A stretch of DNA of 63,336 bases, filler included, from Globobulimina sp. (lineage: Eukaryota), in the NCBI GenBank assembly GCA_003354225.1. It is 32 parts of 32 records of this genome, joined end to end, with 100 filler letters (N's around TTAATTAATTAA, not from the genome) between each part and the next. Parts side by side here need not be neighbours in the genome. Positions count along the whole stretch, not along the records: positions 27,771 to 29,653 come from PIVH01010935.1; 31 more parts are not named here. One strand, given 5' to 3'. Position 1 is the first letter of the stretch. Every line of letters begins with the position of its first letter. The position numbers and the translations under genes were made by a program. The notes under the pieces were generated by a model. It was not told the origin of the DNA. It searched no databases and saw only the letters and a program-made list of their open reading frames with translations. Of this stretch, positions 27,771 through 47,490 are shown one piece after another.

Positions 27771-28138
27771 ATGTAGAGGTTGTCAAATAATGTTTTACTG
27801 CAGCCGATCCTGTCAAAAATTCGATTGGTCGCGAGGTGAACACAGATTGCATTGTAAAACATTGCAAAATATTTAAATTCATTGTTTGGTTTATCCGTTT
27901 TATTCACATGTTTGTATGTATGGTTATGATTTACAATTGCGTTTGCTGCATGTTTGTATGTTACAGATTGAGGTCGGTTTGGTGACAGTTTTGATTTTAA
28001 ATAGCAGCCAATTAAATATGTTAATTCATTTTTATTTAACGATAACACAAATTGTTGCAATGCTTTTAGTGGTGCTGATTGTATGGCTTTTCGTGATTTA
28101 ATAAAAGACCACACATCTTGCCCTTGTTTAGTTGACAT
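27771..28138 (-). CDS. Hypothetical protein N-terminus (partial)
   Basis: ORF from ATG running off the contig. Confidence 0.4.
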
Positions 28139-28185
28139 GATGTTTTAATGTTTTTTAACAAAGATTTGATTTAATGTTTTTTAAG

Positions 28186-29653
28186 TTAAATGTTTGCATG
28201 TCTCTCAATAATCTTTTGTATTGCTACAGGATTTGAGGCATAATCATAAACCGTATGCTGATATTTCATGCTATAATCACCATTTTTCAATGGTTTAAAT
28301 ACATAAATACTATCAGCAACAATTTTATCTGAAGAATCCATTTTATCTGAATAATAATTCCATCTTCCAATCATATATTCACTTTCAATGTACATCGGAC
28401 TTATAAGGCAAATATCGGAATTAAATAATAGAATTTATCCACTTTGCTAGTGCACATAAATGTCATTATTTAATTCCGAAAACTTACCTCAACGCATAAA
28501 ATCTTTGCCTTCCATGCCCTGAATTCAACAATGTCGATGGACATAAACTAATAATCATTTTCTCCTCAAACACAGAGTTTTTAATCGCAGCCAGTGCTAA
28601 ATTATGCGCAGCCATTAAATATCTAAAATCCGCATTCATAATCACAACATCAAATGGCTTCCCATTCAATACATATTTATCCATAAACCACTCACTAAAA
28701 ACATCACAATGTATCCATTTTGCATGTGATGCCCATATTTCCCGTCCAGATTTCATTCGATATCTATCAATCTCAACCGCCGTAATATTATGTCTCTCAT
28801 CAATCTCTTTGGTGATATTGCCATTTCCTGCAAATAATTCCAAAATATTTAATTTTTTAAATGTATGGCTGTCATTCTTATGGTATGGTATCAAGGCACA
28901 CATTAAGCGAGCTGGCGGCGAGGGAGTTCGTGGAAATATGTCTGATTCAATTAACCGATTTATTATTTCGAACTTATCACTGTTATCTGCTGAGGGATCA
29001 ATGCCAATTCTTAAACATTTCTGCTTTAATTCGGTTAATGTTTTACCATTTAATTCATTCATATCTCCGCCATATTGAATATTTTCACCTTTCTGAATAT
29101 AGCCATTTGATGCTGACTCATTCATCATTGTAATGACTGAAAATAATTTCTTTTGGGATGACATAATATTTCCATTGTTATCCGAACACATTAAACAAAC
29201 ATAATTGCGTTTATTAATATTATTTGCTGCATATTTTATGCATTGTTTATGTTGCAGATGTTTGCATAAATTACATTCAACAAACTGCGAAATATCGTTA
29301 GTATTATATTGATATTCACGATTTGTTCTACATTTGACACAAAATATATACATATTTTTACTCATTTTCTTTGAGGAAACGTGGATTTTAAAAGTTTGCG
29401 ATTTTCCATAGGCGATGTAATTTACACTGTGTTTGTCAACGGGTTCGCAAACTGTTATTGCTATTTTGTATCCATTTGCTGCATTTAATAGTTGTGTCGC
29501 TTTATTTAATTCGATTATTTCTGAATAATATCGGTCTCTCTTTATCTTTGGTGTAATATTTTTATTATTTATATTTAATGAAATATTATTGATTGAGCTT
29601 CGATTATTTTTATTTTTATTTTCATCAAAAATTGGAATTAAAAATATCTCAAA
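28186..29653 (-). CDS. PHD finger + SAP/HeH-like + N6-adenine methyltransferase-like protein (5' truncated; intron ~28404-28487)
   Basis: C4HC3 PHD (CVKC...VECNLCKHLQHKQC...YVCLMC); LNGKTLTELKQKCLRIGI; motif I ILELFAGNGNI; motif II ITAVEID; WIHCDVF; motif IV FDVVIMNADF. The frame is open to the contig edge. Confidence 0.78.
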
Positions 29654-29753: not shown

Positions 29754-31465
29754 AGGTGGATTATGATGAAATATGTAGTGATTTTTGGCAGAATTATACA
29801 GTGGGTTTAACTTATAATTATTGTGGTGTATTGTCAGTAGCAAATAATGCTTTCATACCATTGGAATGTACTGACAGATATTCTTTTTTATGTAACAAAC
29901 CAAGGAATAAAGCTGGGATTTGCAAAAGTAAAAGCAAACAAATATATTGTCCACCAAGCAAACAACTGTTAGAGATTAATTTAAGTGATTCATCAAATGC
30001 TATTGTTGATATTGCCGCGGATTGTGGACAGGCAGTGCAAGAAACGGATGGTTGGCGATATATAAATCCTGGTCCAGGCATGCAATGTAATAAAATTAAT
30101 TGGTACTTTGAATGGTTTGATGTCAATGAGACTGCCGTAAGTTTAGGTTGTTTAAATAAAATACAGTTTTCAATGCGTGGTATCACGGAACAAGTATTCA
30201 TTCGCGTATATACAAAACCGACTGGTGACTCTAATGTGGATATTGCGTGGTATGCGAGTTCAATGTTGACCTCCGCAGACACCTTAGGGACTGTCAATGG
30301 ATATTTTGAGACATTTACTACATTCACAGCATGGTTGCCGGGCGACTATGAAGCGATTGTTGGCTATAAAAATAATGATTATAGCAACAGTAAAGCGGCA
30401 TCCATGCGAGATTTATATAATGAAGAAATATTAGGCATTGCATTGAACACAAATGCAGCTGCTCTGCATAAAGGAGATAATGATTTTATTGTTAAGAATT
30501 TTACTGTGCAATATAATAAAGAATGCAATGTGTGTCCAGTGACTAAAGTATTTAATATGGAACAGAAAGAAAAGGAAAAATGTAATCATAATATGGATGT
30601 TATATTTGTGGTGGATGTTGGTTGTGTTATGAATGGAAACAATCAATGTGGCAACAGACAGAATGCAATCAATGAAATGGTATTGGCACTGAGTGAGATT
30701 GCTACATTGAAAAATATTAATATTCGCATTGGATATGTTTTTTATACACAACTGAGCGGATTAACCACCATACACTTAAATGATTACAATACAATAAATG
30801 AGACAAATATTAATAGATTAATGAAAAACATTAATGGCCAAATTTGTTATATTGCAGGTAAAATTAGTATCTATTCAGGTATACGGGAAGCGATAAATGA
30901 ATTTAAATTAAATGGAAATACGTCATATGAGTCAGATAAACGGATCATTTTATTATCACAATGTATAAACCAACAAGAGACAGATCCATGTTCGTTGACA
31001 GATTATGGTGAAAAAGAATTGATTGTACAAGGAAAAACAGTTCAATTTACTGTTATAAATAGCGTCGGGGATGAAGGACATGATCCATATAATTATTTAT
31101 CATGTTTATCAAAACAATTATTTGTCGTTAATGATTATAATGATATATTTGAATGGGAGAATGTGATTAATAATTTTAAATATTCAGTATGTGGAATATT
31201 ACCAATTGCAACAATAAATCCATCATTATCACCAACAATAAATCCAACTATAAATCTGGACTGTCAATTATCAAATAATTATAAACCATGCAATTGTTTT
31301 ATTGAATATTCTAAATGTAATGACAGAATTGATTGTATTTGGAGTAATGTTGTTAATGAATGTTCAAATAAAACAATGGCAACACCACCGCCAACAGATA
31401 GAATACCTACATTAAGACCAACGCGACGAATAAAAACGCATAGACCTACCAGAAGAATAAAATAA
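29754..31465 (+). CDS. Extracellular-type protein: C-type-lectin-like end, beta-rich domain, degenerate VWA domain, Pro/Thr repeats (5' truncated)
   Basis: C...ECTDRYSFLCNKP; MDVIFVVDVGC...IRIGYVFY...IREAINEF...KRIILLS; NPSLSPTINPT and RPTRR repeats. Confidence 0.65.
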
Positions 31466-45609: not shown

Positions 45610-47490
45610 AGTATTCCATCCCATCGCGTTTGCCTCCAAATCATTCACCCAAACACAGCAAAATTGGCACGTCAGTGAGCAGGAAGTATTCGCAGTGATA
45701 TACTTCGTCGAGAAATGGCGTTATTTGGTACTTGGACGGCATTTTACGGTACATACAGACCATAAAAACTTACAAGAGCTCTTCAACCGAGCCAAGAACT
45801 TCCGAGCGGGCAAATTGTACCGATGGGCGGTGAGATTGCAGGAATACGACTTTACTGCGGTTTACGTCCCTGGCTATGATAATATTATCGCAGATTATTT
45901 ATCAAGAAATGGATTGCATAAAACACATACATTGGACGGCATAATCATTGATGAGTCGCGCGAACAGCGCAAAATCGCAACTCATGATATAAATGCCTTA
46001 TATTTGGACCATTTCCATTCACAAATAATCACTGGCGACTTCATAGACACACTCGGCGACGAACTACATAATGACCTCATTGCTCATTGCCCCCTATCAC
46101 GGCGCCCAAAATCTACTCGAAATTCAGCCAAATCGCACTCAAATCCGACACTAAAATTAAATTTGACTCAATCGACCACACGAAATTATGATCGAATTAA
46201 TTCGCATTCGATCCAAACTAATTACAATTTGCGGCATAATATGGTTGGATTCGATGATTTTTATCATCAAATCACCGACAAATACCCGACAGCGATGCAT
46301 GATTCACACGATTTGCATGCATTGATGGCCACGAATCGCCACGCAAAATCGCATAATATTGACAATCAACATGATCTAAACCACGATAGAATGGGTTCAG
46401 ATCATCACGGAATGAGCCCGGAACACGTCTTAATTCATCCGGACCATGCACGAATTGGTTCGGATTTGCATAATAATCAAAATACGATTGGCTCAAACCA
46501 CGATAGAATGGGTTTGAACCACGATACGATGGTCCCGGATAACGACTTAATTCACCTGGATCTCACTATAAATCATCCAGATCGCGCTAATCCGGACCAT
46601 ATCGATGATATTTGCGAGCACAATGACGAGGATATTTGCGAGCACAATGACGAGGATATTTGCGAGCACAACGACGATGATGACATTTCAATGGATTCAT
46701 CACGTGACCGGAGCCCATTTGATAGGCATTTCGAAGCTGACTACGACGAATCGACCGATAGCGATTCAGACCCACCAACACCACGACGCCATGATAGAGG
46801 CAAAGAGGAAGCGGAAGAGAGTGGTTTTCTTGATGAATTTTTACAAAAACTTCAAGAGTGACGAGTGTTTGCCGCAAGAAAAATTAAAAATAAAATACAA
46901 CACAAACAACACGAACAACACATAAACAAACCCATAAAACCAAAACAAACACTAAAACAGCAAATAAAACAGTCAGAAACGCGTCGCAGATCGACACGAA
47001 TAAGAAACAGATTGCCGGCAAACCAAGAAGCCGACATAAATAACTCCGAATTAATTGAAATCCCGCATGTTGATGATATCCTAAATAAAGCACAGCGCAA
47101 ATCCTATGAAGAGCGCCTAAACAAAGCGATTGCTTTAAACAATCAAATATTATCATATAAACCATGCGATCCCATCCATAACATTGATACCATCGATCCC
47201 ATTCCATCCATAATACTCGATCGGTATTATCCGAAGCATATAACTCCGGACCTAATACTACAAAAACAGCAATCCGATCCGTGGCTGTATGGCATAATCC
47301 AATATTTATTAACCGATAATACTTATTTAATACGGGCATTACCTAAATATTTGTATAGATTTGTATTGAATGGCAAATATAAGGTAAATGAAAATGGATT
47401 ATTATTTTATAAATATAAAGAGAATGATTATAAAGTTGTCGTACCTGACACTTTACGCAAATCCATAATGCAAAATGCCCACGATTTGGT
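45610..47490 (+). mobile_element. Ty3/gypsy-type LTR retrotransposon pol fragment (RNase H, long linker, start of integrase zinc domain) with one in-frame TGA
   Basis: PIAFASKS...EQEVFAVIYFVEKWRYLVLGRHFTVHTDHKNL...RWAVRLQEYDF..YVPG..NIIADYLSR, then QQSDP...GLLFY...VVVPDTLRKSIMQNAHD. Confidence 0.9.
46606..46677 (+). repeat. 24-bp coding tandem repeat x3 (DICEHNDE)
   Basis: gatatttgcgagcacaatgacgag repeated. Confidence 0.9.

Follow-up and report, generated by a model that had tools for sequence, protein, structure and literature searches.

In protists, the foremost candidates for a link between histone marks and N6-methyladenine (6mA) in DNA are adenine methylases fused to reader domains, and for Foraminifera there are almost no epigenomic data. 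[quoted passage not shown] The rhizarian clades in those sections carry MTase-S or restriction domains, not PHD fingers, and the same sections make no mention of a PHD-linked small methylase in Rhizaria. A literature search on Reticulomyxa and 6mA returned this paper only. The exchange of adenine methylases between transposons and their hosts is under active study, and parts of a preprint (bioRxiv 10.64898/2026.05.21.726589) describe Dam-type domains with a conserved Asn-Pro-Pro triplet in DIRS and long terminal repeat (LTR) retrotransposons. According to the same parts, expression of these domains in E. coli brought no gain of 6mA, and most orphan adenine methylase copies of the DAM family are argued to be transposon remnants; Foraminifera appear in the preprint's main text with giant-virus-like DAMs only. 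Here we describe a gene from Globobulimina sp. (assembly GCA_003354225.1), located on the minus strand of the stretch of DNA analysed, a window of 63,336 bases. It encodes a PHD-like zinc finger fused to a small methyltransferase domain in whose motif IV NADF stands in place of NPPF.

The locus is very probably a functional nuclear protein-coding gene of a foraminiferal family. By its sequence, the encoded protein is a divergent member of a family that has not been described before, and the claim made for this single gene is a modest one. We consider a phage-type adenine methylase ancestry of the methyltransferase domain probable. For the present-day role, the reading that fits best is that of a DNA adenine methylase directed to chromatin, a tentative one that falls somewhat short of an even chance. 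The gene had come to attention through an original prediction made from the sequence alone, and each element named there (a C4HC3 PHD finger, a helix pair and motifs I, II and IV) was found in its place on the minus strand. The elements of the protein are listed below in order from the N-terminus.

29186..29341, minus strand: PHD-like C4HC3 zinc finger, aa 105-156, matching the regular expression C-x2-C..C-x2-C-x4-H-x2-C..C-x2-C
28946..29038, minus strand: helix-loop-helix, aa 206-236, SAP/HeH-like by shape only
28922..28936, minus strand: FPRTP, the N-terminal helix motif (motif X), aa 240-244, with a family-conserved T-P that aligns with FYPTP of the phage-plasmid protein described below
28814..28840, minus strand: motif I, ELFAGNGNI, aa 272-280, the glycine loop that binds S-adenosylmethionine (SAM), both glycines near-invariant in the family
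28766..28780, minus strand: motif II, AVEID, aa 292-296, read from the sequence
28625..28648, minus strand: motif IV, VVIMNADF, aa 336-343, with the NADF codons AAT GCG GAT TTT at 28636-28625
28351..28368, minus strand: GRWNYY, a conserved family strand in the family alignment, aa 400-405
28297..28314, minus strand: DSIYVF, the last conserved strand in the family alignment, aa 418-423

The motifs follow the gamma-class order, with the FPRTP helix, motif I, AVEID, W..D-V-F (motif III) and motif IV in succession, and the predicted domain is a complete class I amino-methyltransferase domain of ~200 aa in the gamma arrangement. An exhaustive HMMER search with residues 196-389 against 1.84 billion cluster representatives returned 28 homologues at E ≤0.001, twelve of them at ≤1e-10 and the best with 62% identity to the Globobulimina protein. 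A word-indexed homologue search returned nothing at E 0.001 when the exon-1 product (P0001) was the query, and two family members only when the family alignment was used. The ten homologues that were looked up were all singleton clusters (from ENA, Logan and EukProt), none with a functional name; most homologues were short fragments, and the only named ones were those of the foraminifer Nonionella stella. Judged from these searches, the family seems to be undescribed, unannotated and lineage-restricted, being confined to Foraminifera. Its members share a T-P helix, (D/E)-L-x-A-G-N-G-N-I-T, A-V-E, W-x3-D-(V/I)-F, F-D-x-V-x-x-N-P-x-F, L-L-P, G-R-W-N-Y-Y and D-S-I-(F/Y)-V, and the nine near-invariant positions (two Gly, Ala, Arg, Trp, Asp, Phe, Asn and Phe) are all present in the Globobulimina protein.

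Motif IV was spanned by 26 of the 29 alignment rows. Five of these read NPPF, eight NPDF, six NP[E/L/T/A/Q/S]F and two NSDF, the last being P0003 and P0005, which are among the closest relatives of the Globobulimina protein. NPDL (P0006), TPDL, TPEP (P0013) and NKKF were found in one row each, as was NADF, in the Globobulimina protein itself. Thus, the asparagine is retained in 24 of the 26 rows, the phenylalanine in 23 and the first proline in 22, and the second proline in five; the motif of the family is N-P-x-F, and that of the Globobulimina subclade is N-[P/S/A]-D-F. On the evidence of this alignment, NADF stands last in a graded series, NPPF > NPDF > NSDF/NADF. The replacement of NPPF by NADF is therefore genuine, as had been proposed; across the homologues it is the Asn and the Phe, and not NADF as a whole, that are kept. 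A sequencing error for NPPF was also considered and ruled out: at least three base changes would be needed, and the nearest relatives read NSDF or NPDF. A Logan contig of run X1 showed 0 differences over 27777-28889; X1 probably represents the source data, which means that the agreement adds no independent evidence. As a natural series in which the remainder of the active site is kept, these variants offer a ready test of how much weight the Pro-Pro pair carries in amino-methyltransferases.

A maximum-likelihood tree was constructed from 22 of the 29 rows, the short fragments P0010, P0011, P0012, P0017, P0020, P0021 and P0022 being excluded. The Globobulimina protein fell in a clade of five rows with P0003, P0004, P0005 and P0009 (support 100/99). 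The deeper tree was poorly supported, with 11 of 19 inner branches open. Run X2, from another organism and possibly an RNA run, contained a contig ~90% identical to the gene over 28662-28930 (the methyltransferase domain) and a contig ~96% identical over 29152-29306 (the finger). Twenty-five of the 33 differences counted in both records are listed, and 21 of the listed ones fall at third codon positions, three at first and one at second, as against ~8 third-position differences expected without constraint; the coverage stops just short of the NADF codons. Because 21 of these 25 differences occupy third codon positions, the comparison indicates that the gene is under purifying selection.

In sequence comparisons, the most consistent relatives of the methyltransferase domain are small phage-borne domains. 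Matches to the family phrog_3820 ("DNA methyltransferase") were obtained with 19 of 23 members (best E 5e-12), among them P0003, the closest relative of the Globobulimina protein (E 5e-10), and four further PHROGs of the same name matched two to eight members each. With P0014 as query, tblastn aligned 75% of the query to the C-terminal domain of a protein with DUF4942 from Klebsiella phage-plasmids (27-28% identity, E ~1e-3), found in four phage and 120 plasmid records, 116 of the plasmid records being from Klebsiella. When the family profile was aligned with the methyltransferase domain of the DUF4942 protein, hhalign gave a probability of 92.8% (E 4e-7). One such protein, QBP27495.1 of Klebsiella phage ST13-OXA48phi12.3 (MK422451.1; L001 2816-4498), is a 561-aa "hypothetical protein" and full-length phrog_6263 member, with DUF4942 at aa 140-295 and a small C-terminal methyltransferase domain that contains FYPTP, EPEAGRG and NPPY.

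Small phage clusters ranked top in the ESM Atlas, where P0014 scored 0.95 to a cluster with 57% N6_Mtase members; the corresponding segment of the Globobulimina protein scored 0.89 to one in which Eco57I makes up 62%, no more than a lead. Foldseek against viral models retrieved small phage methyltransferases (E 1.9e-12) and also large phage proteins that combine a methyltransferase with a helicase. The predicted model of P0005, with a predicted local distance difference test (pLDDT) value of 89, had as its top matches by Z score 2f8l (17.3), M.TaqI (16.4), HsdM (16.4) and M.BseCI (15.8), whereas in the order given by Foldseek 3lpm and TrmM came first, followed by HsdM, M.BseCI, METTL5 and M.TaqI. 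By fold, gamma-class DNA adenine methylases tie with KsgA, METTL5 and TrmM. The aligned span was 170-198 residues for the DNA enzymes (model residues 1..203-213) and 150-165 for the RNA enzymes (model residues 1..176). Taken as a whole, the comparisons make DNA a plausible substrate.

The second half of the proposal concerns chromatin. The zinc-ligand spacing at aa 105-156 of P0001 is that of a canonical C4HC3 finger. In Pfam the match to PHD (PF00628) reached E 0.0029 and 18.0 bits, under the 24-bit gathering cut-off, and that to PHD_4 (E 0.0021) was also below its cut-off; homologues of the same layout gave E ~1e-4 and 20-22.5 bits for PHD, likewise under 24 bits. The fusion of such a finger to the methyltransferase is real and recurs in the family: a PHD-like finger stands upstream of the same domain in P0006 (892 aa), P0024, P0027 and P0029, and P0006 aligned with the Globobulimina protein from the finger to the end (31% identity, E 6e-29). 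AlphaFold2 modelled residues 100-389 with a mean pLDDT of 81. Between finger and catalytic domain it placed two helices with confidence (aa 206-216 and 227-236, model residues 107-117 and 128-137; pLDDT block means 83-94). This is the helix pair of the original prediction; its likeness to SAP/HeH is one of shape, since the segment matched neither SAP (PF02037) nor any other Pfam family at E 1; one family member matched Rho_N (E 0.0057). The first 99 residues were empty in Pfam.

Under the reading that we prefer, the domain would have its ancestry among the small N6-adenine methyltransferases of gamma type found in phages or plasmids, and the zinc finger and helix pair would bring the protein to chromatin. 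There an exocyclic amino group would receive a methyl group from SAM, the N6 of adenine in DNA being the likeliest acceptor. With its proline-free motif IV, the Globobulimina copy may be slow, may have changed its target or may only bind.

A number of observations weigh against this reading and in favor of its rivals. The Globobulimina protein itself matched no PHROG family at E 0.001, phrog_3820 included; N6_Mtase (PF02384) and Eco57I (PF07669) were not matched at E 1, nor was any Pfam DNA methylase family, and PHROG names are in any case annotations and not assays. Its two methyltransferase matches in Pfam were both below cut-off (Methyltransf_25, E 5e-4; RrnaAD, PF00398, E 7e-4 and 19.1 bits against 24), MTS (PF05175) was not matched, and phmmer against Protein Data Bank (PDB) sequences returned only the EBS PHD (E 0.23). 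For the proposed assignment to prokaryote-type N6-adenine DNA methyltransferases, the gamma motif order, the phrog_3820 matches of family members and the hhalign alignment speak in favor, but the Pfam families N6_Mtase and Eco57I do not recognize the protein. Searched against PDB sequences, the family profile found HemK/PrmC first (E 2.8e-4), then a TrmN6-like protein, RsmC, ErmAM, KsgA and METTL5, and DNA methylases later (EcoR124 M, E 0.028; BseCI, E 0.053). Among the 23 members, Pfam at E 0.01 detected MTS in nine, two of which exceeded the 23-bit cut-off (P0027, 42.8 bits; P0029, 31.5 bits), and N6_Mtase and Eco57I in one each. The NCBIfam models matched were Erm (7/23), PrmC (5/23; best E 7.5e-11), KsgA (4/23), L3 glutamine methylase (3/23) and TrmN (2/23). 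At the family level, the comparisons thus pull both ways, towards phage-type DNA adenine methylases and towards RNA or protein amino-methylases. Moreover, no target-recognition domain follows the catalytic core. Further points of the same tendency, on the finger and on motif IV, are given with the pseudoenzyme below. The leading named enzymes, HemK excepted, methylate adenine N6.

These matches raise the possibility of an RNA amino-methyltransferase that works in the manner of METTL5, TrmN6/TrmM or Erm/KsgA, with the finger and helix pair serving in ribonucleoprotein or co-transcriptional targeting. It would account for the weak matches of the Globobulimina protein to RrnaAD and to the NCBIfam Erm model (E 1.9e-4, 20.9 bits against a cut-off of 212), for the Erm, KsgA, TrmN and MTS matches of other members and for a METTL5-like size of ~200 aa without a recognition domain. 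However, the matches to RNA families span only the SAM-binding half of the domain that all these enzymes share, phrog_3820 matches far more of the members, and the RNA enzymes align over fewer residues of the P0005 model. The parts joined to the methyltransferase in this family, furthermore, are not of the RNA-binding sort but PHD fingers and the ends of retroelement integrases. In active Erm/KsgA enzymes motif IV reads N-[L/I]-P-Y; the Globobulimina protein has neither this motif nor a score at the cut-off. We regard an RNA substrate as improbable.

Still less probable is a protein methyltransferase of the HemK/PrmC-KMT9 kind, which would be aimed at histone tails by the PHD finger. HemK is the best match of the family profile among PDB sequences, PrmC and L3 glutamine methylase models match several members, a PHD finger would be expected to set an enzyme on histone tails, and the Asp of motif IV could, speculatively, suit a basic side chain. 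On the other hand, a nucleic-acid enzyme would accord better with the F-x-R-T-P helix and with the phage relatives, and the members fused to integrase are hard to square with a histone substrate.

The changes in the Globobulimina copy itself bear on whether there is any catalysis. Its motif IV has no proline and so departs from the (D/N/S)-P-P-(Y/F/W) of gamma-class enzymes; to our knowledge, no amino-methyltransferase with a proline-free motif IV has been characterised, and no paper on NPDF as a methyltransferase motif IV was found in the literature. The finger was modelled with low confidence (pLDDT block means 48-75) and reads L-Q-H where P0006, P0024, P0027 and P0029 read W-x-H, so that a Leu occupies the Trp site two residues before the zinc-binding His. 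In the BPTF and ING structures this Trp is part of the aromatic cage with which H3K4me3-reader PHD fingers hold methyl-lysine. With the cage Trp absent from the finger, as judged against its PHD-bearing relatives, the case for guidance by histone marks is weaker for the Globobulimina copy.

A catalytically dead pseudoenzyme, in which the fold is kept as a scaffold or as a module that binds SAM, nucleic acid or protein, by analogy with METTL14 beside METTL3, is a contender, if an unlikely one. It would explain the loss of both prolines here and of the second proline in 21 of the 26 rows, the additional loss of Asn or Phe in rows such as TPEP (P0013) and NPDL (P0006), and the substituted cage Trp. 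The Globobulimina protein is also the most divergent of its clade when compared with phage profiles (0 PHROG matches against E 5e-10 for P0003), and retrotransposon DAM domains, although of another family, gave no 6mA in E. coli, as reported in the part of the preprint cited above (bioRxiv 10.64898/2026.05.21.726589). What speaks for an enzyme is that the Asn and Phe of motif IV, the glycines of motif I, the Ala-x-Glu of motif II and the Asp of motif III are all kept. Purifying selection is evident too, though it would also be expected on a binding module. Erm and KsgA are active with N-[L/I]-P-Y, showing that one non-proline position is tolerated.

The gene model is as follows.

28488..29653, minus strand: exon 1, with a frame open right from the contig end, 388 codons and 2 further bases
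28400..28487, minus strand: spliceosomal intron of 88 nt, GTAAGT...ATAAG, 27% GC, phase 2
28186..28399, minus strand: exon 2, encoding the last two strands and the tail of the methyltransferase domain, with a TAA stop codon at 28188-28186

The open reading frame (ORF) of exon 1, P0001, comprises 389 aa from the contig end at 29653 to 28487 on the minus strand, and the predicted spliced product is 459 aa. The splice donor is canonical (AG|GTAAGT, with GT at 28487-28486), and tblastn alignments of homologues to the window break at 28490 and restart at 28404/28398. The acceptor that starts exon 2 at 28399 is the first of three in-phase AGs and the sole one to give a gap-free joint to the homologues P0005 and P0011; the junction reads RFYAL-S-PMYIESEYMIGRWNYY in the Globobulimina protein and RFYAM-TPLYISCAHEIGTINYH in P0005. 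Alternative in-phase acceptors, with exon 2 starting from 28381 or near 28366, did not align gap-free to these homologues and were dropped. The matches in the sequencing runs yielded no splice joints. A spliced last exon containing IGRWNYY and DSIYVF had been anticipated and is present, but it begins earlier than proposed, which adds S-PMYIESEYM ahead of IGRWNYY. The first Met is residue 97. Because 96 open codons precede it, in stop-codon-rich DNA, the gene is most likely truncated at its 5′ end, with its start beyond the contig end at 29653.

In three of the 23 members the methyltransferase domain comes directly after the C-terminal part of a Ty3/gypsy-type integrase. P0019 and P0028 carry Tf2-type integrase SH3-like ends ahead of the domain, and the start of P0016, as read by eye, resembles the end of a retroviral-type integrase core. 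This suggests that LTR retrotransposons carry members of the methyltransferase family. The family thus spans host-like PHD proteins and proteins linked to retroelement integrases, in parallel with the transposon-borne adenine methylases described elsewhere. Pfam detected no transposon domain in the Globobulimina protein or in P0006. With the deep branches so poorly supported, transfer may have run either way between the copies in transposons and those in the host. On another contig of the window, an RT_RNaseH domain (E 5e-24) occurs at 45611-46858 on the plus strand, so LTR-type retroelements exist in the assembly.

One explanation prompted by these fusions sees the gene as what is left, in decay, of a methyltransferase carried by a retrotransposon and not as a functional host gene. 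Besides the three integrase-linked members, the singleton status of all ten homologues looked up and the short, fragmentary nature of most homologues would be in keeping with decay, as would the view, put forward in part of the preprint for the DAM family, that most orphan copies are transposon remnants (bioRxiv 10.64898/2026.05.21.726589). Yet both exons are open and joined across a spliceosomal intron, 21 of the 25 differences from the diverged copy lie at third codon positions, neither the Globobulimina protein nor the 892-aa P0006 has a transposon domain, and the contig's other gene, of the MYND-finger type, is an ordinary one. Decay is, in our view, very improbable. A more elaborate history would be a second independent capture of a phage-type adenine methyltransferase by Ty3/gypsy elements, this time in Foraminifera, and its subsequent domestication into host chromatin proteins with a PHD finger and helix pair. 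The motif IV loop would then have been remodelled from NPPF through NPDF to N[S/A]DF under selection, implying a new substrate or chemistry (e.g., another base, a hybrid of DNA and RNA or the side chain of a histone) rather than simple decay. This scenario is rather unlikely in its entirety.

The window itself is a construct. Its 63,336 bases are 32 contigs of 1880-1884 bp that were ordered by size and artificially chained, as was seen when it was split at runs of N. Each pair of contigs is separated by a linker of 44 N, a 12-mer and 44 N (N44-TTAATTAATTAA-N44), and TTAATTAATTAA occurs 32 times in the window at regular spacing against a chance expectation of 0.15, with linkers at 1929, 3913, ... 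61401. Because the contigs are unrelated and artificially joined, ORFs on either side of a linker are not genomic neighbors, and findings that depend on neighborhood across a linker are unsound. Neighboring ORFs were accordingly dismissed as gene context. The PHD-methyltransferase gene lies wholly within one 1883-bp contig (27771-29653; 30.5% GC). The same contig holds the C-terminal end of a MYND zinc-finger gene on the plus strand (27772-27876, the last 34 residues at 27772-27873; PF01753, E 3.6e-7, above cut-off), which is cut by the contig start and convergent with the PHD-methyltransferase gene, ~310 bp separating the two stop codons. ORFs on the other contigs are eukaryotic genes; Hsp70, Ras, MetAP2, a DEAD-box helicase and the RNase H of a retroelement are among them. 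The MetAP2 fragment shares 77% identity with a record labelled 'Ammoni...' and 74% with one labelled 'Sorit...', taken to be the foraminifera Ammonia and Sorites, in keeping with a foraminiferal assembly. The contig at 21822-23704 has 46.7% GC, compared with ~26-42% for the rest, and encodes a divergent CRAL/TRIO domain protein; its origin may lie in another compartment of the genome or in another organism. The contig that follows the gene in the window has a 569-aa open frame at 29756-31462 (plus strand), Cys-rich and with a Pro/Thr/Arg-repeat tail, which matched no Pfam family at E 1e-5.

Among known systems, the small phage and plasmid gamma-type domains (phrog_3820, phrog_6263 and the C-terminus of the DUF4942 protein) resemble the foraminiferal family in motif order, in the (F/Y)-x-T-P helix, in a length of ~170-250 aa and in having no recognition domain. 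They differ from the Globobulimina protein in keeping NPPY and in lacking PHD finger, helix pair and introns; identity is ~27%, and their activity on DNA is a matter of annotation only. M.TaqI, HsdM and M.BseCI retain NPPY/F and have large DNA-recognition domains of their own or recruit them, and their similarity to the family is marginal (E 0.03-0.05). METTL5 and its archaeal counterparts Ta1320 and PH1948, concerned with 18S rRNA m6A, have an rRNA substrate, with TRMT112, and no PHD finger or helix pair; METTL5 is no more similar to the foraminiferal family than the DNA enzymes are. The retrotransposon DAM elements, as presented in parts of the preprint (bioRxiv 10.64898/2026.05.21.726589), are alike in placing a prokaryote-like adenine methylase on an LTR-retrotransposon polyprotein, as in P0016, P0019 and P0028, but theirs is a truncated Dam-type domain with an Asn-Pro-Pro triplet, which the Globobulimina protein lacks. 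The 19 Pfam families that were listed for these 23 members did not include one of Dam type, and, judged by Pfam families and motif, the foraminiferal family looks like a different one. The reader-fused methylases in the sections of PMC4738411 cited above share the design of the Globobulimina protein, a histone or DNA reader joined to a methylase domain derived from prokaryotes, but belong to Dam/DpnM-like and DpnA-like families with intact motifs and to other lineages.

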